This document shows, one piece after another, positions 1,575-64,000 of a DNA stretch of 64,000 nucleotides; the stretch's first letter is position 1, and every line of letters starts with the position of its first letter. Position numbers and translations under genes: made by a program. This stretch comes from Eledone cirrhosa (Eukaryota). The notes beneath the pieces are model-generated. The model did not search any database and was not told the DNA's origin. It saw only the letters and a list, made by a program, of their open reading frames with translations. The stretch spans positions 392,584,001 to 392,648,000 of the forward strand of contig OZ024740.1 of the NCBI GenBank assembly GCA_964016885.1, read 5' to 3'.

Positions 1575-2872
1575 GTAATTATCAATATCTCTATAATATA
1601 CTTTACAGAAACACACAGATACACCCTGTGTACATGCACGTGTGTATGTGGGATGTATGTCTGTGTGGAATGTCTATATATCATCATCATCATGTCAACT
1701 TTTCCATGCTGGCATGGGTTGGATAGGACTTTTTGAGGCAGTGTTTTACAGCCAGTTGCTTTTCTTGACACCAACCCTTTTTGTCACTTAAAAAATTTGA
1801 ATTCAAAGATTTGACTTCATGCGGAAAATTCAAAATTAGTAGAACGATGTTATTTTAGCTTGGCAGTGTTTATCCTATTAATGAGTTCTGTTAAATAATA
1901 ATATATATCAAAAGAGATCGCTATATCATATATAATGATCATTTAGCTCTATGATAACTCTATGAGAAAATTAGAGCTAAAAATTCAAGAATCCAAGTCC
2001 TCAGAACTTTGTACACTGCCAATATCATAGGAAACCACATATATAATATTTTGCAGAGAACAATTTAATTAGGTTAAAAAGAGCATAGTATTATACTTAC
2101 ATTGCCACTAAGTCTTAACAAGGTCTATATGGTACCATTTCATACAGCAAAAATCATCAACATTTACCATTGATTAACATTGGCAAATGGTGAAGCCATA
2201 AGCTGCAATCATCAGTAGACATCTTGAAATTCTAGAAAAGTTTTCATTCTAGAAAAATATTAGTTTCCATATTGAAGAGGGTAAGTTGTTATTTGAGAGG
2301 AATTCAGCTGCTTTTTCTAGCAGATCAAGTACCACATACAGGCTACCTCTCTTTACCTTTTTAATTGTGTGTGTATGTTGATATTTATGTGTGTGTGAAT
2401 GTTTGTAGGAAGTGCTATAGAATGGCAGAAAATTATGTTAGTAAGAGAAGTATTCTGTTGAATTTTAATTCCTAGATGGACCTACTTTACTTCACTTACA
2501 TTGTTACTTAAGCATGTCTTCCACACAAAGTGATTAATTACTTTGTAGTGAGGATTAGTAATGAGTATGTTGCTCTGATGATCACCAACAGTGTGAAACA
2601 GACTCTGTTGGCTTCTCTCCATTCTTTTGCTGAAAAAAAAGAAGTAAGTAACATAGTCACTACTTTAAAAATGATAGCGCAAGGTCTTCAAAATGTTCTT
2701 AATTAAACATACGGTATATTGCCAAATATACTATACATACATTCATGTATACATCATTATTTCAGAGCACCAATCCTAAAATATATATATATATATACAT
2801 ATATATCCCTGTTTATATATAGATAAAGAGAATAAAGAGAGAGAATATATGTTGATCATTTTTTAATTTCAG

Positions 2873-4357: not shown

Positions 4358-5981
4358 CATCATAATCATCATCATCATCATTTAACGTCCATCTTCCATG
4401 CTAGGGTTAGACGGTTTTGTTCCATTTGATGCGGGAATTGTTGGGAGACCATGTCTTGCTCGCACGGAAGCATCTTTGGCAGGTTTTTTTTACAGCTGGA
4501 TGCTCTTCCAACCACATATACAGTGTGGACTGGGAGCCTTTTCACCATGTCTCCTACACGGCCACCTTACAGTGTGACTGTTGTGTCATCGACACAGTGG
4601 ATGGAACAGGAGAGGGAGGATGGGGTAGGGTATGGGGGTGGGGGTGTACATTGAGTTAAGAGGTGCCTACTGACTGTAGGTTTGTATGCAATGGTAGTCG
4701 GGTCTCCTGTACCAAAGGTCTCGATCCAGTGTCATTGTCTTAGAGAAGTGTAGGTAGGCAAGGTCAGTTTTTATCACCTCGTCCCAGGTTTTTCTTGGTC
4801 TACCCACTGCGCAGCTTCCAACAATTTTCATTGCCCTGCACTTTTTTATACAGCTGTCATCCTTCATACGCATCACATGTCCATACCAACGCAATCTCCT
4901 CTCCAGAACACAACATTTGATATCTCTTACGCTTAGTCTCCCTCTTAGTTCGTTTATGCTTTGCCTTTCACACACATTACTATTATACATCCATTGGAGC
5001 ATGCAAGCTTCATTTCTTTCTAATCTACGCAGGTCTTCAGCACACAATGCCCAAGTCTCACTACCATGTAAGATCGCTGTTTGTATACGTGCATCATACA
5101 ATCTGCCTTTCATTTTTAGAGAAAAACCCCTTATGGTCAACAGTGGTATTAGCTCTCTTAACTTTTTCCATCCTGTTCTAACTCTGGCTACTACACTTTC
5201 AGAGCACCCTCCTCCATTGCTGATTTTGTCACCCAGGTAACGGAAGGTGTCTATTATTTGTATAGAACCATCTGGGCAGTTGAAGGAGATATTATCCAGT
5301 GGGTCCTTGCTACTTACTGCACCTGAGCATCGGCCACATATAAAATCTACATTCTTAGATAGCGTACCTCTGATCCCACTACATCTTTTATGTACCCATA
5401 GTTTGCATTTGGGACATAGAATGGAATTTCTACCTACTCCTTTCCTACATACTGAGCATGGCCATTTCCCAGAGGGCAGCTGTGCCCTATTCTCCTTTCT
5501 ACATACTAGAACCTTAGTCTTAGACAAGTTGACTCTAAGGCCTTTTGATTCAAGGCCATGCTTCCATGTTTGGAACTTCCTCTCTAGTTTAGCCATGGAT
5601 TCAGCTATTAGAGTTATATCATCTGCATATAGAAGTTCCCATGGGCAGCCAGTCTTAAACCTCTCTGTTATCGCCTGTAGGATAATAATAAACAGGAGGA
5701 GGCTAAGAACAGAGCCCTGGTGAACCCCTACTATTACACTAAATTCATCACTATAGTCTTCGTTAATTCTAACCTTGCTGACTGTTTCTTTATACATGGC
5801 TTGTATAGCTCTCACAAGCCATTCTTCCACTCCTAGTTTTCTAATAGCCCACCAGATTAAGGTGCGTGGGACTCTGTCAAAGGCCTTCTCCAGGTCAACA
5901 AAATCTAAGTAGAGGTGTTTACTGTTAGCTAGGTACTTCTCCTATAATTGCTGTACAAGGAAAAGAGCATCTGTGGTACTT
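4358..5981 (-). mobile_element. 5'-truncated RTE-clade LINE (RT with PHD-like insert, 3' UTR and (GAT)n tail), antisense in a CEP162 intron
   Basis: ORF 4667-5830 has GVHQGSVLS, LLYADD, FRYLG, RRLRWYGHVMRM and GRPRKTW; FVDLEKAFDRVPR lies upstream; ends ggacgttaaatgatgatgatg, typical of RTE. Confidence 0.95.
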
Positions 5982-6179
5982 TTACAAATGCAAACAAAAT
6001 GGATTTTTATATGGGAAGAAATAGTACTGCACCTGTAATTCCCCTAACCATAATGAGTTTCTGATTGAATATGAATTTTTTTTAAATTGTAAAAAAACTT
6101 TTTTTTTTTGCCGATTTTGAGACTGATGTTCAAAACAAAAAAAAAATCTGAAGAGGAATGTTATCATTTTTTCTAATTC

Positions 6180-11790: not shown

Positions 11791-13240
11791 CAAGTGGCCA
11801 GGAGAGAAGCTGGGAGACAAGAGACAAGTGTACCTTGCAAGAAGGGAAGCAGAGGATAGAAAGTTCAAGCATGTTCTCCAACGCGAGGACCAAAAACGTT
11901 CAGGATTGCAAGACAATGTGTCAAGGAAAACCATGATATTGTCGGGGAGAAGTGTGCCTGTAATAATGAGGGTGTACTTGCCCTCACTGATACTGATAGG
12001 AAGGTAGTTTGGAAGTGTCACTACGAGAGACTACTAAATGAGAAGAATAAATGGGAAAAAGATAGTCTGCCCCAAATTGATCCAATAGAGGGACCAGCAG
12101 TGCAAGTTAAAGGTAGTATAATAAGTAAGGCAATCAAAGATATGGAGACAGGCAAGGCGGCTGGGCCTTCGGAGATAGTTGCTGAGATGTTGAAAGCATC
12201 TGGAATGATGGGACATACAGTGGTCACTCGTATAGTAAACCAAGTAATGCAGAATGGGGTCATACCAAAGGACTGGCATAGCAGCATCATCGTTAACTGC
12301 TACAAGGGTAAAGGAGATGCTCTAGATAGGGGAAACTATAGAGGCATTAAGTTAGTTGACCAGGTCATGAAGGTCACAGAAAAAGTAATAGCACAACTAA
12401 TCAGAGAGCGAATTGATCTAGATGAAATGCAGTTTGGGTTTGTGTCAGGTAAAAGTACCACAGATGCTCTTTTCCTTGTACGACAACTACAGAAGTACCT
12501 AGCTAAAAGTAAACCCCTCTACTTAGCTTTTGTTGACTTGGAGAAAGCCTTTGACAGAGTCCCCCGCTCCATTATCTGGTGGATCCTTAGAAAGCTAGGA
12601 GTAGATGAATGGCTTGTGAGAGTTATACAAGATATGTATAAAGAAACAGTCAGCAAAGTTAGAATTAACAATGAATATAGTGAAGAATTAGCATAAAAGT
12701 CGGTGTTCATCAAGGCTCTGTCCTTAGCCCCCTCCTGTTTATTATTGCCCTTCAGGCTATAACAGAGGAGTTTAAGACTGGCTGTCCATGGGAACTTCTA
12801 TATGCAGATGATCTAATACTCATAGCTGAATCTATGTCTGAACTAGAGAAGAAATCCCAAACATGGAAGCATGGCCTTGAATCAAAAGGCCTTAAAGTTA
12901 ACTTGTCTAAGACTGAAGTTCTAGTATGTAGAAAGGAAAATAGGGCACAAGTGCCCTCTGGGAAATGGCCATGCTCAGTATGTAGGAAAAGAGTAGGCAG
13001 ATATTCCCTTTTATGTCCCAAATGCAAAGTATGGGTGCATAAAAGATGTAGTGGGATCACAGGTAAGCTAACTAAGAATATAGATTTTATATGTGGCCGG
13101 TGCTCTGGTGCAATAAGTAGCAGCAAGTGCCCATAGGATCATAGCTCCTTCCATTGCCCAGATGGTTCTATAGAAATAGTGGACACCTTCCGTTACCTGG
13201 GTGACAAAATCAGCAGTGGTGGAGGGTGCTCTGAAAGTAC
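11791..13240 (+). mobile_element. RTE LINE fragment (RT domain plus PHD-like finger, with stops and frameshifts)
   Basis: KAAGPSEI, YKGKGD, NYRGIKL, QFGF, FVDLEKAFDRVPR, YADD, WPCSVC...WVHKRC; closely related to 4358-5981; 5' end abuts (TA)n, 3' end cut by a PLE fragment. Confidence 0.93.
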
Positions 13241-13478
13241 AGCTAGATCCGAACTAAAGCGCCAGTATTCGAGCGGCGGGAATCTAGCTGAACTCTTCCA
13301 GGGGTATAATCCATATATGGGCCAACAGTCTAAGCAAATAAATCTTAAAAGTTGTCTTGTTTTTTTGTTTGTATTCTTTTGTTTTGTTTTTCTCTGGGAG
13401 TGGTCAGTGATCGGGGGGGGGGGGATACCTGTGTTCAAATGGCAGTGTTGAATTATCTATTTTTATTACACTCATTGC
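13241..13478 (-). mobile_element. Penelope-like pseudo-LTR fragment carrying the 5' half of a hammerhead
   Basis: Colinear with 61520-61752 (agctagatccgaact...aatctagcXgaact...ggtcagtgatcggggg...caaatggc). Confidence 0.75.
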
Positions 13479-13479
13479 G

Positions 13480-14470
13480 ATCTTTGACTCTTAGTAAAAG
13501 ACAGCCGAAAAATTTGAAGCAATTACTAACAAAAGCAAAGTTTGACCTTAACAACAAAGACCAATCATTCACTGTATATAAATGCAATGATAGTCGATGC
13601 GGCACATGTCAATCCATACACAACGGTCAATATATGAACACAAAAACTGGGAAAATATTCCCAAATGTAAATATGAACTGCAAAAGCAGAAATCTAATTT
13701 ACTGCATTAAATGCCCGAATTGTGAAGAACTATATGTCGGTCAAACTGGAAATGCACTATCGGAACGTGCACGGGTGCACCGACAGAAAATCAGAGACCC
13801 AAATGTCCGTCAGATACCCCTGAGTAACCATCTATCAACATGTGGTCAGAGAATATTTATATTTCCATTCTATAAATTACACAGCCCAAGAGAAAATCAA
13901 AGAAAAGAATGTTATTGATAAATTCCAACCCAAGCTAAATGAACAATAATAATGGGGTATTACTCCTACTATGACTATGACTACGACCACTAACAACAAC
14001 AACAACAACAATAATAATAATAAAAGTGATGTTGATAGTGATGATTACTAGAAAATGCTATTTTCATCATTTCTAAAAATAGCAAAACAATTGATGCTTT
14101 GGATAGCGTCAAATAGTAGTCGTTAGACATGCTCAACCAACCGTGACGCCTAAACCAATCAGCTTTAGTAATCCAGTGAAACTACACACCGATTGGTCGA
14201 AATACAGTTTGCAGAAATTAGCATTCTGTAGCCGATTTTCACTGTATATAAGGCACAACATTTACCCATCTCATTACAGTTGAAAATTGCAAACTTGACT
14301 GTCACCACAGAATATGAACCTGAAGATTGAGAAAGCATGAAAGTACTTGTTCAATTAACACTTAACATTTAATATTCTACCATACTATTTCATTCTAATA
14401 CCATTATAAATTTTAAAGGATTGTAAATAAAACGAGTAAATCAGACAAAGTTGGAATTCCTTTTATTAAT
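13480..14470 (+). mobile_element. Penelope-like element 3' end (Neptune-like): Cys-rich linker, GIY-YIG endonuclease and pseudo-LTR
   Basis: RQPKNLKQLL, CNDSRCGTC, CKSRNLIYCIKCPNCEELYVGQTG...ERARVH; downstream region has a minimal hammerhead and ends in (TA)n. Confidence 0.85.
14315..14353 (+). ncRNA. Minimal type I hammerhead ribozyme (PLE pLTR)
   Basis: TGAAC-CTGAAGA-t TG agaaag CA t-GAA AGTACT T-GTTCA: 5-bp stem I, palindromic stem III, CUU triplet. Confidence 0.7.
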
Positions 14471-19580: not shown

Positions 19581-19648
19581 CCTCTATTATTTTACATTAC
19601 TCCGGAGTAACCAAACCAACCTGCGCACTTCGTATAGGAAAATGTATG

Positions 19649-19744
19649 ACCCCGACGGCAGAGCTCAAGCCGTTTCGACGGCTATTTCTGGACTAAATTA
19701 GAATTTTTAGCGTGGTAAATAAATAGCCGAACTTTTCAAGGGGT
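19649..19744 (-). ncRNA. Type I hammerhead ribozyme, U3-A8 core variant (3' pLTR)
   Basis: ACCCC-TTGAAAA-G tt CGGCTATTT...AAATAGCCG t C-GAAA-CGGC ttgagctct GCCG-TC|GGGGT. Confidence 0.8.
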
Positions 19745-22700
19745 AATTCCTTATATGGGAAGATTGTAGTTGTTAAGAGGATTGGTCAAAATTTCTTGTA
19801 AACACAATTAAGTCTATCCTGGCAGTGAGTGGGAGGTGGGGGTGGCTGAACTTGCCTGTAGAACAATGAGGGAGTGGGAGGAGCAGGTCAAGCGTTGAAA
19901 CTGAATTCTATACAGCAAATTCTAAGGATTGTGTATGAAACTAGGCTAGAGGAAGTAGGCGATAAAGGATTATGGAGAAAATAGAGAAGGGACGTTATAG
20001 AATAGGTAAATCCATTGGGATTAGAAGATAATAAATAAATGAGAAAAAAAAAAAAAAATTGGATAGTAAGAAGTGATAAAAAAACTATAGAGTCTAAAAC
20101 AGCTGCTATATTTAGTCGGTGTTGCGTTTTCGGCCAATTCTATAGAATAGGTTAATAAGTTGAGAATAGAAGATGCTAAATAAATAAATAAAAATTTGAA
20201 ATTATAGAATTGGGTAATAAAAAGTAATACAAAATCTCTGGGGTCTAAAACAGCTGCTATAATTAGTTGGTATTGCGTTATCGGCCAATGCTATCTTTAA
20301 TTTACTGGGGTGGGGGTACTGATGCTACAAAGGCCCGATGGGCTGCCTCGGGGTAGGTAAAAGGGGAAAAGGGAAAAGGAAGAGGATAGGGAGTGGAAGG
20401 AAGTGATAGGAGGAGACAAAGGGAAGAAGAAAATAAAAAGGAAAAGAAAAGGGGGTACATCTACCAATGTTAGCTGGGGTTTTCCCTATCTTGTTCGGCA
20501 AGTGGGGAATAGGAGGATGTTTCAGCCATTGTCTACCCACCCGGTCATTAGGGGGTTTGAGGGCGAGGTAAGTCCTACGCAATCGGTGTTTGTATGCAGT
20601 TACCAGTTCGTCTTCTTTGTTTAGGAGTTGGTCCTTCGTAAACAACATTTGTAAGTGCATAAGTTACATGGAGGGTGTCCCCCCGTGTAGGAGTTAGCCC
20701 TGGACAGTAAGCTCCAAGTAAGATTGTATGTTATTATCTTGGAGGTCCCAGATGTGGCCTGAAAGTGTAGTGGCATGTCACCGGGCCGGGTTTCGGAACG
20801 TATGTCGGTGTTGGTAGAGCCGGGTCTTAAAGTCACAAGCGGTTAATCCTATATAAGATTTTTTGTCCGTCCTCCCGTTGCACTGGTAGATCACATTACG
20901 TTCTCGGCATCTGTTGTTGAGGGGGCACGTAGATATATCAGGGCAGTAACACCTCCTGGTCGGCTCTCCACTAATGTCTATGTTGTTTCTTCCATAGGGG
21001 TTGAGTTTTTTGTTGTTTGACTAGGCGATGTTTTGTGCGAAGTTGGGTGTGGTGCTGTAGGAGAGTTTGATAGTGTTTTTGTTGATTATGTTGTGGTATC
21101 GGTGTTGTGGTGGGAAGTGTTTTTTGAGGAGCCTAAAGAAGATTTTCCCGATAGGTGTTGCCACCTCGGCATTGTGGGGAGGGTTGAACCACGTTACGTG
21201 GCGTGAGCGGCGGCGTCGCCTGCTGGTTCCGCTAAGGGAAGCTGGATAAAAGAATATGTCCTCCCGGAAGCCGCTTCGCTTGAGGGCCTGGTTGTAATGA
21301 GGCGCATGTTCATCGAATATCTTCTCATTAGCGGACAAACGAGATATGCGGAGGGAAATGTTTTTAACCAGGTTATTGGTGATGTTTCTAGGATGGTTAG
21401 AGCGGCGGTGGATGTAGTGCAGGTTGTCGTTTGGTTTCCGTTTTTAGGGTGATTTTAAATCCCCAGTCCCGGAAGAAGCTGATTAATTGTTTACGGACCC
21501 GGTCTGTACTACTGGGGTTGTACCCTTTGAGGGTAAGGAGCCCATCGTCTCGGTACAATCCACCGCCGAATGCAGGAAACATTTCGGTGAGTTTATATAG
21601 TAGGAATAATCCTATAAGATCGGTCACCTCGGCCGAAACGGTCGCGCCCATACTGACGTCGAAGTGGGAGTCGGGAGCTCTCTTTATCCACTTGGAGTTG
21701 TCGAAAAGTAGGACTGTTCTCATGGCGTGGAGAATGATATTTCTTTCCTGGTCGGTGATGGGTGTGAGTGTTTTGACAAAGTTCAAAGCGGCCATAAGGA
21801 GCGGTAAGGTAATAGATGCATAGTAACTCTCTATGTCAAACTGGATGAATTTGGTGTCCTGTTTGTCCTAAATATTCCTGAACCATGAGATTACATCCTG
21901 GGTGCTGACCCATAGGCTAAGTCTCGTGTTTTGCTTAACTTTTGGTATTACGCGGTCTAGGATCTTTTTACTGATTCTTCCTATGTCCGACTTCGTCGGG
22001 TTTATAAGCCTGATGGATGGTTTGCGGTCGAAGTCGGATTTGTGGTCCTTCAGTGTGAAGTAGGAAGTCCGTGGACCGAGGGGGTTCCGAGGCTGGAGGT
22101 AATTTGTTGTCCATCTAGATTTATGTCCTCGATAATTGAATGGTTAGCCTTTTTGTAGGTGGAGTTCAGGCTGCTCCTGATCAGTGTGTGGTATCTGTCA
22201 GGGTTGACGAAATAGAGGTTTCCAGTTTTGTCCGAATGCACCAGGATGTCGTTGGTGCTTTCATACTCCGTTATTTTGCTACGGAGTTGTTGTAGGAATC
22301 TGTTGTGTCTGGGTTTGAATTTATACCCTTGACCAGGTGGAAAAGGTGTTCTCGAAGGGCGAGAACATAGGGTTCGGTGGGCGAGATCTGTAGGTATTTA
22401 ATCCGAATCTCTCCTTGGTGTCGAAGTCCTGGTTGTCGCGGTATCTATCGTAGAGAAATGTTCTCCATCTTAGTCTTTTCGCAAACAGGTCGATTTTTTG
22501 CGTGAGCATCCGAAGGTAAAGTTTTCTCGGTGGAACCGGGATGTTCTTGGTAGAGAAGTCGATATTGTGTTTTCGCATAGTGGGTATGATGAAGAAACTG
22601 CAGCTGGGTGGAAAAGTCGGGATATGGCGTTGTAGGGTCAGAAAGTGCTCTACTACGGAGGTAGGAGCTAGATAACGAAGGAGTTGTAGTAAGGAACCAG

Positions 22701-22766
22701 ATGGACCATAACGCACCAGAGTACTCAATACTTAGGGTAGTAGAGTGGGTAATAGGAAAATGTATG

Positions 22767-22861
22767 ACCCCGACGGCAGAGCGCAAGCCGTTTCGACGGC
22801 TATTTCTGGAAAAATTAGAATTTTTAGCGTGGTAAATAAATAGCCGAACCTTTCAAGGGGT
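22767..22861 (-). ncRNA. Second copy of the U3-A8 hammerhead (5' pLTR) with an A9G core substitution
   Basis: Same fold as 19649-19744 but the core reads TTGAAAG. Confidence 0.7.
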
Positions 22862-23261
22862 AATTCCTTATATGGGAAGATTGTAGTTGTCAAGAGAATT
22901 GGTCAAAATTTCTTGTAAACACAATTAAGTCTATCATGGCAGTGGGTGAGAGGTGGGGGTGGCTGAACTTGCCTGTAGAACAAATTCTAAGGATATATAT
23001 ATATATATATTTTTATATATGTTTATGTGTATTTGGTGTATACGTTCGTATGTGTGCGGATACAGGTGTTGCGTGGGTTTTTGTATGTGTGCGCGTGTTT
23101 TTGTGTACGTTCCTGTATTTGCATACCCATGGCGGGTGTTTTTACGTATGCATGTGTATGTACGTATATGAATGCGTGCATGTATATTTTTAATTATTGT
23201 TTATTTCAATAACCTCTGTAATTTATTTACATTATTCTTAACTCTGAAGCGAAGAATCTTT

Positions 23262-31532: not shown

Positions 31533-33199
31533 GTCTCTCTTTCAATCTACTCTCTCACAACCTCCCTCTCTCTCTGTTTATGAAGGTACTCGGAAAAACC
31601 CCATATTTCGGGAACCTATGCTCCGATTTACGCGAAACTTGTTTTATTCCATTTGCATTCCCATTTCAGGGTCAACTTCCATTCAAAGTATTTTCCCATT
31701 ATACTCCCTTTTGGATGTATTACATTATAGACAAGCAAGCAATCACAGAGTTTTAGTAGTATATAGATAGATATTAACACCAAAAATATAAATCTTAACC
31801 CATTGAGGATTATAATATCATACATGAACTATTAATTATTTGATGTTGGATGATGAAGTCCTGGCTATATATTCCACATTCAGTTGCACTTTGTTACTAT
31901 CGAAATTGTAATTTTCCCCAAACCTACCCTTTACTTGTATATTTTGCTGTTAATATTAATTTTTAAAAATAATTATATTATGCCGTTAATGTTAATTCTC
32001 TACATTAGCTAGATTTTAAATCATGAAAATATAAAGAAATAATTTAGATCTGAAGGGGTTAATTTATAAACTAAAATAAATAGTAATTCCAAGTAGAAAT
32101 GAGAAAAATATGAAGCAAACTAATTATTTACTTAGTAAAACAGTACTTTCTCTCTCCCTCCCTCTTTCTCTCCCCCTCCCTCTTTCTCTCTCACCTCCCT
32201 CTCTCTGTAAGGAAGGGATCATCTGTCAGACCTGGAAAGAGATGGACCCCGCTAGCTTTAGATACTTAAGATGCGCCATTGATCACGACAACACACAAAT
32301 GCCTTCATTAAGAGCCCAAAGCAAGGCAAAATACAGTAATTAACAGTTTGTTCCATTATAATTTCTAATCAATATTGAGCGTTAAAGTTTCTTACAGAGA
32401 AAGTAAATCAGACATTGTATAAACATTTGTGTGCATATGTACATAAGATAATCTAACTCAGTAACTGTTTTCTCGATATAGATATCTTAGCAGCAATTTC
32501 TTTGGAAATTGGAAGCTGTTGAAATTCAGCATATAAATAAATTTCTATTAACCCAACTGATGAGATTTGATTTAAGAAATACGATACCATAAAACCAAAT
32601 AATTACTCAAACACCTCTTCATTTCTAAACTAAAATAAACAGTTTATCTCCTTAGAAATTTGTCATTTTCAACATTAACTATTGGTAGCATCGCATGGCT
32701 TTCTTATGGTCATCAATTTTGTTAGAAGAATGTTATACAGAGAAGGTGTAAGAAAACCTAATGTCTCTTTTCTTATATCAAGCCGTAAAAAACAACTAAA
32801 CTCTATTTGTATTTTATGCACTTTGGACTGAAACCATATATATTTTGTGATAAACGATCAAAATTTGATACACAGTTTATCATAATCTGTTTACAACGAA
32901 GCATTTTTCTGACTACAAAACTTACATAACGTTTCATTAAAAAAGTCTTATAACCCGTTTATTATAAATCAAAAACTTTCTTTTTGCAGTGATTAACAAG
33001 TCAGAAAGGAATTATGAGAAAAACAAAACAAAACAAAAAAGCATCTTCAATGTTCTTAAACATAATATCTATAATTTGAAATTTCTCGAATGGAGTACAA
33101 CACGTTTTCATCAATGCCTCTGAATAGACTCATCACACCCCCGAACACAGTAAGGAAATGAATTCGCCTTCTTATTTAATAGAGAGCGTTTTTAAACCT

Positions 33200-53818: not shown

Positions 53819-54441
53819 TGGGGAGGGTGGGGATGATGAGAGGGCGGTGATGGGGAGGGTGGGGAGGGTGAGAGGGTGGTGATGGGGTGGGGATGGGGAG
53901 GGTGAGAGGGTGGTGATGGGGAGGGTGGGGGAGGGTGAGAGGGTGGTGATGGGGAGGGTGGGAAGGGTGAGAGGATGGTGAGGGTGGGGGTGGTGAGAGG
54001 GTGATGATGGGGTGAGGCTGGGGAGGGTGAGAGGGTGGTGATGGGGAGGGTGGGGAGGGTGAGAGGGTGGTGATGGGGATGGTGGGGGATGGTGAGAGGA
54101 TGGTGATGGGGAGGGTGGGGATGGTGAGAGGGTGGTGATGGGGAGGGTGGTGATGGGGAGGGTGGTGATGGGGAGGGTAGGGAGGGTGAGAGGATGGTGA
54201 CGGGGAGGGTAGGGAGGGTGAGAGGATGGTGATGGGGAGGGTGGGGAGGGTGAGATGAGGATGATGGGGAGGGTGGGGATGGTGAGAGATTGGTGATGGG
54301 GAGGGTGGGGATGGTGAGATGAGGATGATGAGGAAGGTGGGGATGGTGAGAGGATGGTGATGGGGAGGAGGAGGGTGAGATGAAGATGATGGGGATGGTG
54401 AGATGAGGATGATGGGGAGGGTGAGAGGATGGTGATGGGGA
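53819..54441. repeat. G-rich degenerate satellite (GGGGAGGGT / GAGAGGGT / GGTGAT units)
   Basis: About 620 bp almost devoid of C on the + strand. Confidence 0.9.
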
Positions 54442-57639: not shown

Positions 57640-57845
57640 AAAGAAGGTGTGGTAAGATACCAGGTGGACCATAACGTACCAAAGTACTCGATACTTAGGG
57701 TAGTAGAGTGGGTAATAGGAAAAGAGTCAGGACCCCGACGACTAAGATCCGGCCATTTCGAGAGCTAGATCCGAACGGATCTACTAGCTTTCGGATCTAG
57801 CTGTCGATCGGCCTGATCTCAGCCGTCGGGGTCTTTATTCTTTTC
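57640..57845 (-). mobile_element. Short PLE pLTR derivative with fold-back inversion inside the hammerhead
   Basis: 57660-57724 matches 22698-22760; arms 57719-57775 and 57790-57845 are inverted; flanked by (TA)n. Confidence 0.8.
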
Positions 57846-58003
57846 ATATATATATATATATGAAAAACAGGGTGAAAAAGAATTAGGAAGAAAAATATAT
57901 TTTTTCCTTTTTATTTTTTTCTCTCGTTTTACTTTGTGTGAAGTGTTAAGGTATTAGTTGATTTATTTATTAATTAACAATGGCATTTATTTATATATTT
58001 AAT

Positions 58004-58377: not shown

Positions 58378-58790
58378 ATATATATATATATATATATATG
58401 TAAAAGTTCTATTTAAATTGTTGGGATACAACAAGTAAATATTTTTATAACTGATATAAAGCACTCAACAAATATTTGGAGTAAAAATACGATATTAACA
58501 AATGGAAACTATATTTATAAAACCATATTTATTTCATTATACATATTTCAAGGACACCAAGTTAAATTATGGTGTGCTTTCATCAGATAAAATATAATAT
58601 AGATCAGTTTTATAAATAAATATTGACATACCCTTAAAAAATGCAACCATTACTGTTGGAAGCTCCCGGATAGTGTAGCTTTAATTATATTATTATTAGT
58701 ATTGGATATTTTTATTTTTAAAATAAGCCGTTGGGTTACGGAGAAAGATAAAGATAAAGAAGGAGAGGGAGAAAAAGAGAGAGAGAGAGA

Positions 58791-60026: not shown

Positions 60027-60318
<292 letters not shown>

Positions 60319-60837: not shown

Positions 60838-61475
60838 GAATGAATTTTGTACATGTTTCGGTAATTCCTTTCTATCAGCTGTTAACATGATTTCTCTACA
60901 ATTTTGTCAATTTTCGATTGTGCAAGTGTTGCTAACCCCAATTGATACTTCGAGAGTATATGTGGGTGTTTAGGTCAGTATTTTACTAATGCACACACAT
61001 ATACCTATACACACATATATAAATATATAGGTATATCGTAGTATTTGTAACTTGTGTCAGGGCAACCTTTCTTGTAAAGTCAGCTCAGGCCAATTCATAT
61101 CTTATAGCTGAAAGTTTCATGCTCGGAAGCAATCCTTAGACGAATACGAGTAGTGATAAGAACTTTCGATAGATTTCGGTGGTCCATCAGTTATGAGACT
61201 TAAAAGTCATTGTCACAGAATGACTACAAGGCCACAGTCCAATGACTGAAATAAGAACAGCTGTTAGAGAATATACTTACATAAACACGTCATTTAAGTA
61301 ACGGGTTTCTTTGACCAATAATGCTGGACCAACACTTTTAAAATATATGTATTTTCAACATATATTTCTTTCTAACATGATATTTTCAGATGTTTATTTT
61401 TGTTGTATATTTTTCATGCAGACCTATAATGTAACTCTAAATTTTCTAACTTATCTTGTATATATGTATATATAT

Positions 61476-61760
61476 AAAAGATTCAGGATCCCCGACGGCT
61501 GAGCTTCGGCCGTTTCGACAGCTAGATCCGAACTGAATCGCCGGTATTCGAACGGCGGGAATCTAGCAGAACTTATCAAGGGATACAGTCCATATATGTA
61601 TGGACATACAGTCAAAGTAAAAAGAAATCTTAAAAGTTATTGTTTTTTATTTTTCTCAGGACTGGTCAGTGATCGGGGGCTGGGGTATCTTAGGTCAAAT
61701 GGCTGGTATAGCCCTGCTACATATCGTGTATTTTATTTATTACATTCTTAGCGGCGAGGG
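61476..61760 (-). mobile_element. PLE pseudo-LTR (sister subfamily) ending in (TA)n
   Basis: Colinear with 13241-13478 and contains a complete hammerhead. Confidence 0.75.
61488..61584 (-). ncRNA. Type I hammerhead ribozyme, U3-A8 core, extended stem II
   Basis: ATCCC-TTGATAA-G ttc t GCTAGATTC c CGCCG ttcgaatac CGGCG attcagttc GGATCTAGC t gt C-GAAA-CGGC cgaagctca GCCG-TC|GGGGAT. Confidence 0.8.
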
Positions 61761-62138
61761 GCTAGACATGCGAAAATGAAAGGGGAATGGGTCGGTAGAC
61801 TAATTGAACTGAAAGTGCCAAGCAAGTCAGCCGCGCACTCAAACTATTAAGAGAGATTTAATCTTTATCAACTATTTCCGATCTGTAGAAATTTTTTTGA
61901 GTTAAACTTCAATTCAAGAGAGAAAGAAACTGAACGAGAGAAAATATAATTTCAGCGTATATAAGTCAAAGAGTATTTATGTTTTTGCTTTATTTTTACA
62001 CTTTGCTAAAAAGCTAAGCATTTATAATTTTTTACTATTTCTCCTCATCATAGAGAAATCTAGTTACCGGTTGCTCCATGGCCCGGGAAAAGCGCCTCAT
62101 TCACATGTTTTTTATTTTACTTATTTTCAAACTCATTT

Positions 62139-62246
<108 letters not shown>

Positions 62247-62427
62247 AGTGAGTGTACTGAGGAAGGGTGATGCCCAGAAACATTAGTGTCTGCAGTTCTG
62301 TTTACATGCCAACACAAGAGCAAGCATGAAGGGTTCATTCTACTGACATGGCATTAAACATGAGGCTTGTTTGCATAATTGCAAACGAATCGAATGTTAT
62401 TATTAATATTCGAAAAACTCAGATTAC

Positions 62428-62561
<134 letters not shown>

Positions 62562-62793
62562 TAATAAAATCTATGAAATAAAAACAAAGAACAAGTTCCT
62601 TATATCAAAAAATTCATCATTTTACGATCGTTTCTGGGATGTATATGTGTGTTGGTATGTATATCATGTTTAAGATCTATGTAAAAATATTACAAATTAT
62701 CAGAGAAAATATATATACCTTCACATATACATGCCGTCCTCAGAAATGATGAGATGTGTTTATTGAAAAAAACAAAGAATTGATATAAAGAGT

Positions 62794-64000
62794 TTGTATG
62801 ATTTCACCACATATACGAACCCACCACACAACTCCTTTCTTGAAAACTTCGAGAAAGACCTATTTGACTTAATCAAACACCTCAGATTTAAGAAATATAA
62901 ATCTAATTTTCAAAAGGATCTCGACTCTACCCTATTGGAACTAATAAAATCTAGCAAAGTCCACGTCCACTCTGACAAAACAGGAAATCTATACCACATG
63001 GATATTGATAATTATAATGAGTTCATTTATAAGGAACTCAGGAAAAATTATAAAAAAACAAATAATGCGGCTCTTACCAATATCAAAAACAAAACATACA
63101 ACATAGTAAATAAACTCAATATTGAAGACAGAACTGAACCTTTGGCACTGAAAAAACCACATTTTAACCCGAAAGATCACAAATCTAACTTCAACTCTAA
63201 TCCTTCTATAAGACTTATATGGCCTTCCAAGTCAGACATTGGCATTATTAGTAAAAACAAATTGGATAGAATTATCCCACAATTAAGAAAACACGTTAAC
63301 TTACCACTCTGTGAAAACACATCCCAAGTAATTAATTGGTTTTCTAATATTAAAAATAAATCCTCTGCTTCATTTCTACAATTCGATATAGATGCTTATT
63401 ATTCCTCTATATCACCCATACTCCTGAACAAAGCCTTGATATTTGCCAAAAATAGATCAGACTTAACTATGGATGACATTAATATTATCACGCACGCTAG
63501 ACAAACACTACTGGAATTTCAGAAGGAGTATTGGACCAGAAATACATATAATAATCTCTTCGACATAACTATGGGCTCTAGTGATTCTGCCCAAATAACC
63601 GATCTTATGGGCCTCTTTCTTCTATTTAACATTAATTCATCTTTCCCCCACCTTAAAGGTGGTTTATATCGTGATGACTGTCTTCTTCTATCCATTAATC
63701 TTAGCCTATCAGAAATTGAAAGAAATAAAAAACTTAGAACTTTCCTCAAAGACTATTATAATCTCACTATTACATTTGAAAACACCAGTAAAATAGTCAA
63801 TTTCCTAGATATAACTATGGACCTATCTACGGGTATCTACCAACCTTACCATAAACCTAACCAAAACTTGCATTACATACACTCACAATCCAATAACCCT
63901 AGATCTATCCTTAAAACCTAGCATATAATATCTCACTCAGGATCTCTAACCTTTCATCAAATCAGGATGTATTCGATAAAAACGCGCCCTTTTATAACGA
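62794..64000 (+). mobile_element. Penelope-like element RT region (same lineage as 19635-22994), running off the window
   Basis: HSDKTGNLY, KDHKSNF, SKSDIGIISK, QFDIDAYYSSI, FDITMGSSDSAQI, GLYRDD, NFLDITMDL, YHKPN; continues after a frameshift as LRISNLSSNQDVFDKNAPFYN. Confidence 0.92.

Follow-up and report, generated by a model that had tools for sequence, protein, structure and literature searches.

A decayed hammerhead of a Hydra-clade Penelope-like element in Eledone cirrhosa, with a likely transcription start inside its long stem II

Hammerheads of Penelope-like elements

Hammerhead ribozymes in the pLTRs of Penelope-like elements (PLEs), including a variant with a U3-A8 core pair, have already been published, as the available text of PMC4209133 documents. 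Hydra-clade PLEs, Hydra-1_Obim among them, are marked in the available parts of Craig et al. (2021, PMC8557442) by an RWK-like motif, a DKT motif, a CxCX5C linker, a C-terminal endonuclease and insertion into (TA)n. The element analysed here resembles them in its C-terminal GIY-YIG domain and RW(K/R), DKT and CxCX5C motifs, in its (TA)n targets, tail and inverted truncated partner, and in carrying a type I hammerhead on the sense strand close to the 3' end. The ribozymes themselves differ: all Hydra rows in file S2 of that paper have a C3-G8 pair, a loop II of at most 9 nt and a tiny loop III, whereas the present hammerheads have a mostly U3-A8 core, a stem II that occupies 56 nt, and a stem III of 5 bp with a 9-nt palindromic loop. 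The minimal PLE hammerheads of Schistosoma Cercyon and other metazoans (Cervera and de la Pena 2014, PMC4209133) share the pLTR location, U3-A8, G10.1-C11.1, a palindromic helix III with a dimer model, and pairs on opposite strands. According to the available text, their helix III is almost absent and a dimer is required, whereas the present motif is predicted to be able to fold alone; a start site in stem II is not described in that text.

The biochemistry of insertion has been described for the anole Poseidon PLE (Frangieh et al. 2024, PMC11167929). There a PLE protein nicks AT-rich DNA and, starting at two internal sites of the RNA, extends both strands; the AT-rich target, the extension of both strands and the two RT start sites, which give an optional tail, have their likeness here. 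Ribozyme mutants of that element insert normally in vitro, its ribozyme needed the protein, and no reads ended at the cut site (PMC11167929). Poseidon belongs to a different clade and its ORF starts in stem II, whereas here the ORF starts ~200 nt downstream and it is the RNA 5' end that appears to lie within stem II. PLE promoters and transcription starts have been placed in the upstream pLTR in the accessible parts of PMC2377424, PMC6765202 and PMC3846280, and within the portion of the literature covered we found no description of a start site inside the stem II of a PLE hammerhead. Non-LTR retrozymes, in the available part of bioRxiv 10.64898/2026.07.22.740005, also carry a type I hammerhead derived from PLE ends, but they are tandem, with a whole ribozyme per unit, and the sequences described here are dispersed and mostly inverted half-ribozymes. 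No tandem array of units with whole hammerheads occurs in the window (the whole 64-kb stretch of contig OZ024740.1 that was analysed), and in the fetched loci, too, the copies lie dispersed or inverted rather than in tandem.

The motif at 61488-61584 of the window is, in our reading, a decayed type I hammerhead from the terminal repeat of a Hydra-clade PLE, and its long stem II likely holds a transcription start and not a module for tertiary contacts; we put the probability of this reading at roughly 0.65. What is new is a 5' edge within stem II that is shared by both families of the element, and this is more interesting than the modest covariation of the fold.

The motif and its parent element

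The minus strand at 61584-61488 is by sequence a type I hammerhead: the core UUGAUAA, GAAA and GUC are present, and the type I definition (YUGAN(G/A)A..GAAA..UH, a 3-8 pair, helices I-III, open at stem I) holds with U3-A8 (Table 1). The predicted cut falls between 61494 and 61493. The motif lies far beyond chance, because the pattern UUGANAAGUU..UCGAAACGG, which does not capture subfamilies that have C3 or in which GCU follows A9, has 2,434 exact matches in the genome as against 2 for a reversed control. A first look at the genome gave 2,140 and 1,920 candidates for the two versions of the motif, and 40 of each were scored. Rfam returned no hammerhead at the 61488 motif, either at the gathering score or at E <= 10.

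Most of the parts that an earlier note on this DNA had described from the letters alone are there: the core (UUGAUAA versus UUGAAAA), G10.1-C11.1, the UU/U loop, stem III CGGC/GCCG and GUC are common to 61488 and 19649-19744 on the minus strand, and the CGCCG/CGGCG hairpin is present in the 61488 copy on that strand. The distal stem II GCUAGAUUC/GGAUCUAGC does pair, but the pairing as quoted skips a U·U in the 61488 copy. The loop III palindrome, listed as kept, is broken to GAAGCUC in this copy; its conserved form is GAGCUC, inside the near-palindromic stem III. The note had overlooked that the motif is a PLE terminal repeat and that U3-A8 is already described in PLEs.

Table 1. Coordinates of the hammerhead, its parent element and related copies in the window
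Feature	Position	Strand	Remarks
Stem I, 5' strand	61580..61584	-	AUCCC; subfamily majority ACCCC
Core U3-U4-G5-A6-U7-A8-A9	61573..61579	-	
Long stem II	61517..61572	-	56-nt region; G10.1-C11.1, UU/U loop, 11-bp proximal helix, distal hairpin, 9-nt 3' bulge
Distal hairpin CGCCG/CGGCG	61539..61557	-	only one-sided variants within family A
TCAGTT motif	61531..61536	-	short copies begin at its A (61534), 41 nt ahead of the cut site; putative transcription start
GAAA, stem III CGGC/GCCG with 9-nt loop, GUC	61494..61516	-	
Stem I, 3' strand	61488..61493	-	one extra base in the 61488 copy
5'-truncated 3' end (3' UTR and pLTR) of a family A Hydra-clade PLE	61472..62140	-	between TA-rich repeats, ~670 bp
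(TA)n	62143-62243		
Whole family B element	19634..22983	-	hammerheads 22767-22861 and 19649-19744 flank broken RT (~22391-21381) and GIY-YIG (~21200-20550) frames
Family A fragment	13239..13443	-	core UGGAAGA; without GAAA and stem III; adjoins a LINE-like RT fragment
Head-to-head pair, family A 3' half-ribozymes	57720..57861		
Head-to-head pair, family A 3' half-ribozymes	60202..60318		

The 61488 motif is the 3' end of a 5'-truncated Hydra-clade PLE of family A, a sister of the whole family B element. The truncated end matches other copies at ~80% across 400-620 bp. Other family A copies extend upstream into RT and GIY-YIG coding sequence, 70-76% like that of family B, which rules out a non-autonomous 670-bp element. 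One locus (L103) has an RT and GIY-YIG frame with a family A hammerhead on each side, and the PLE layout of RT and GIY-YIG between direct pLTRs, with an optional tail and an inverted truncated partner, is found there for family A and at 19634-22983, L067 and L068 for family B. In the upstream hammerhead of the whole element (22767-22861, minus strand), A9 is changed, the palindrome is broken and TYAGTY is damaged.

Translated copies carry RLRWR, SDKTG, CNCLDRSSC and CNLC, matched by eye to the Hydra definition and the Hydra-1_Obim protein, and element copies end in (TA)n with the tail present or absent. We assign the element to the Hydra clade because RLRWR, SDKTG, CxCX5C and the (TA)n ends match the marks given in the available parts of PMC8557442. 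A homologue search returned 28 proteins of 34-53% identity, and a Pfam scan of four element fragments gave no family above cut-off for the RT and endonuclease pieces. Two other candidates for the parent were ruled out: the RT frame at 62767-63921 is on the opposite strand and has its own hammerhead, and the frames beside family A ends in L065 and L066 belong to other PLEs.

The window and the fetched loci contain further hammerheads and repeats. The RT frame at 62767-63921 (plus strand) is part of a neighbouring Hydra-like PLE (62614-62752, minus strand; L061 3767-7100), whose frameshifted endonuclease lies past the window; its C3-G8 minimal hammerhead has a 102-nt stem II and the palindrome CGAUCG, and is inverted at the 5' end and direct at the 3' end. 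Three further C3-G8 minimal hammerhead-like motifs lie at 62253-62294 (plus), 58530-58594 (minus) and 2123-2220 (minus), with differing palindromes (CAUUAGUG, imperfect; UAUGUA; UGGUACCA). These three motifs come from a descriptor scan run without a shuffle control, in which a match at 32536-32676 looks spurious. U3-A8 hammerheads with a long stem II and a short palindromic stem III (CUACGUAG, CUGCGCAG) are found at L095:197 (plus) and in L098 (minus); their palindrome has changed in sequence and retained its self-complementarity. About 20 more hammerhead-like motifs lie near TA repeats in L013-L126; their palindromes vary and their stem II measures 13-60 nt, and a long stem II seems common in the E. 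cirrhosa genome, as represented by these loci. An open frame at 13481-13915 (plus strand), with a CxxCxxC linker and a GIY-YIG-like motif (NLIYCIKC..LYVGQTG), apparently represents the endonuclease end of a PLE from a different clade. Two LINE-like RT fragments (5195-5985 and 12449-13238) are 88% identical and oppositely oriented; one of them adjoins the 13241 copy where the 3' half of the latter is absent. Just 5' of stem I, at 61585-61606 and in equivalent positions, lies a conserved hairpin or palindrome (CCAUAUAUGG in family A, UUCC..GGAA in family B), which could also pair with the element 3' end as a distal stem I.

The 5' edge of half-ribozyme insertions

Searched by itself, the 3' half of the ribozyme is matched exactly at 54,366 places in the genome, and the control at none. 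Sampled 3' halves are mostly short head-to-head pairs in (TA)n, with one arm tailed. Anchors 3' of the cut site had 1,901 and 27,597 matches; the first ~70 of each were taken, and the arm samples are the first matches along one contig, not a random draw. An inverted partner is present for 103 of the 144 arms. Counted from the cut site, nine of the 144 5' ends lie beyond -75, four at -74..-46, 78 at -45..-35, 15 at -34..-21, 12 at -20..-4, 17 at -3..+3 and nine later. A second, overlapping count of 214 arms placed 140 ends at -45..-35, 10 at -74..-46 and 16 further up. The modal end is -41 in both family A (13/74) and family B (6/70), and in both it is the A of TYAGTY, which falls in a bulge of the A fold and in a helix of the B fold. 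The upper limit is sharp and the tail runs only to shorter ends, as would be expected of run-off at an RNA 5' end.

The A of TYAGTY, at which the ends pile up in both families, likely marks the transcription start; the motif resembles the insect initiator consensus. An extra G before the start base is what a copied cap would leave, and such a G precedes the -41 A in 13/22 as against 34/97, a marginal difference (p = 0.053) that is suggestive only. Read by eye in the first 100 of 4,315 matches, the base before -41 is G in 52, C in 42 and A in six. At 30 junctions this base came from the partner arm in 15 and from a longer copy in one, and was extra in 14 (eight G, six C).

An alternative, which we consider unlikely, is that the motif is an ordinary monomeric PLE hammerhead and that the edge was produced by stalling or template-switching of the RT in stem II, or by a cellular nuclease, and not by a promoter. 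The stem III hairpin is predicted to be stable enough for a monomer (-6.1 to -7.1 kcal/mol), the edge in family B is close to the base of the distal hairpin, and the cap-G signal falls short of significance. The two families nevertheless share the same edge base although their distal folds differ, which argues against a stall; the RT would already have traversed stronger structures, namely stems I and III and the proximal part of stem II; and neither the sharpness of the upper limit nor a tail solely towards shorter copies favours it. A transcription start inside stem II, the reading we prefer, would account for half-ribozyme insertions in their tens of thousands.

A smaller cluster of ends coincides with the cut site. 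The raw 17 of 144 at -3..+3 become ~13 once internal deletions and one duplicate are dropped by eye, which compared with 11 in the longer -20..-4 stretch is a modest excess (binomial p = 0.003), and joins at G-run microhomologies could produce it. A point against our reading is that the fetched loci showed no pile-up in stem II for other families of hammerheads (17 query motifs having at least four matches, few short copies each).

The distal part of stem II had been described as carrying an added hairpin, and the extension as a possible source of tertiary contacts. Every subfamily majority retains some distal hairpin; since the 19649 family has one too, in another register, it is not peculiar to the 61488 copy. 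The 13241 copy, in which the hairpin was said to be kept, has UGGCG instead of CGGCG and is not independent support, being of the same family and devoid of GAAA and stem III. Within family A the majorities combine CGCCG with CGGCG, UGGCG or UGGUG, and all of these changes are one-sided, C-to-U at CpG. The distal helix of family B is built from bases that are bulged in A, and of the five hairpin pairs of A, three also pair in B rows. That the extension is kept for tertiary contacts with a distal stem I loop, speeding cleavage, is consistent with the universal presence of some hairpin and with the ability of the 19649 copy to form a distal stem I extension, but we find it rather improbable: the helix differs in register between the families and shows no two-sided change within A, the two central pairs of A are unpaired in most B-type rows, and the loop sequences vary while the conserved piece is TYAGTY. 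A pseudoknot from the distal loop to the bulge was dropped by eye, as it is not kept in every subfamily. The stem II extension is likely better explained as the carrier of the RNA 5' end.

Core pair, decay and a predicted trans hammerhead

We clustered 181 distinct full copies into subfamilies and compared nine subfamily majorities. Stems I and III, G10.1-C11.1, GAAA, GUC and the GAGCUC palindrome are invariant, except that stem I of one majority has an additional C at its outer end, and stems I and III therefore contribute no covariation; position 7 can be A, C, G or U. In the proximal stem II, three of nine pairs are changed on both sides between families A and B. The chance of six changes forming three whole pairs is 0.0045, with all of them on the single A/B split, and two B subfamilies are mismatched among these pairs. 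Across a selection of 15 copies, pairing is seen in 88% of cells, compared with 28-49% after sliding.

The 3-8 pair is more variable. Among the first 100 of 3,114 B-type matches, read by eye, it is U-A in 63, C·A in 36 and C-G in one, and U4 is invariant (100/100) while position 7 takes all four bases. All 40 G8 matches comprise 28 U·G, 11 C-G and one A·G. On a midpoint-rooted tree of 62 of the 83 copies, built with the core excluded and holding four rows each for C-G and C·A, the states nest as U-A, C-G, C·A and again U-A. The 3-8 pair has thus switched more than once and been restored repeatedly, yet mismatched lineages amplify. This combination suggests that selection on cleavage is real but weak, and cleavage is likely not required for insertion. 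A C3·A8 core would be of low activity. Least probable of the alternatives is that the motif is catalytically dead here and kept as promoter DNA and a protein-binding fold, its hammerhead look being inherited: the frequent C3·A8 and U3·G8 mismatches in these matches and the insertion of ribozyme mutants in vitro (PMC11167929, available part) agree with it, but the 3-8 pair is restored on the tree, U4 is fixed beside a free position 7, and the 5' half of the core is kept although it lies upstream of the putative start.

The 61488 copy departs from its subfamily majority at five places, two of them in stem I and one being the U·U of stem II. At minimum energy it is predicted to take a fold other than the hammerhead (z = -0.94; as good in 35 of 200 shuffles). 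Hammerhead-compatible structures make up 0.002 of its ensemble as against 0.35 in its subfamily majority; two G8-bearing majorities also fold poorly (P 0.002-0.003), so this share is a rough guide. The hammerhead is the minimum-energy fold in five of the nine majorities, with a tie in a sixth. In 25 flank-anchored family A copies, taken from 27 distinct ones, non-CpG changes are as frequent in the core (13/274) as at unpaired sites (23/553; p = 0.72), the core is intact in 11, and 50 of 67 single changes break pairs, which rules out selection on inserted copies. Inserted copies decay neutrally, and the 61488 copy is an ordinary decayed repeat. The earlier inference of a selected RNA from covariation probably applies to the master lineages, with their three two-sided changes in stem II, free position 7 and 3-8 switching, and not to the decaying 61488 copy.

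A start at the -41 A would lie inside the ribozyme of the upstream repeat. The RNA would then begin with only the substrate half (GAAA, stem III, GUC) and end with a whole ribozyme. The element RT, primed on both (TA)n strands just downstream, would often run off near the RNA 5' end, and run-off on both strands would give short inverted pairs of half-ribozymes. The palindromic stem III is predicted to let the whole downstream ribozyme pair with the 5' half and cut it. A stem III duplex is predicted to be better than two hairpins by 14-16 kcal/mol in the majorities and by 7.7 kcal/mol in the 61488 copy. An unconstrained cofold of the half from -41 with the whole motif yields a trans hammerhead (predicted -51.4 kcal/mol, versus -38.3 kcal/mol apart), in which the GUC of the half is presented and that of the whole motif is paired off; the element ends are ~3 kb apart.

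More tentatively, a start inside its own ribozyme may equip the element with a capped 5' half and a whole 3' ribozyme, with stem III joining the ends as a split hammerhead that would remove the capped 41-nt leader, shield the 3' cut site and switch the RNA from translation to retrotransposition; the half-ribozyme insertions would then be a fossil 5'-end map of start and cut sites. Its amplifying lineages also present naturally occurring variants of the 3-8 core pair (U-A, C-G, U·G and C·A). On the role of PLE hammerheads the element gives a testable answer, namely an end-to-end split ribozyme from an internal start. Should the motif act as a core promoter, the genome would hold, in more than 50,000 paired copies, candidate outward-facing promoters.
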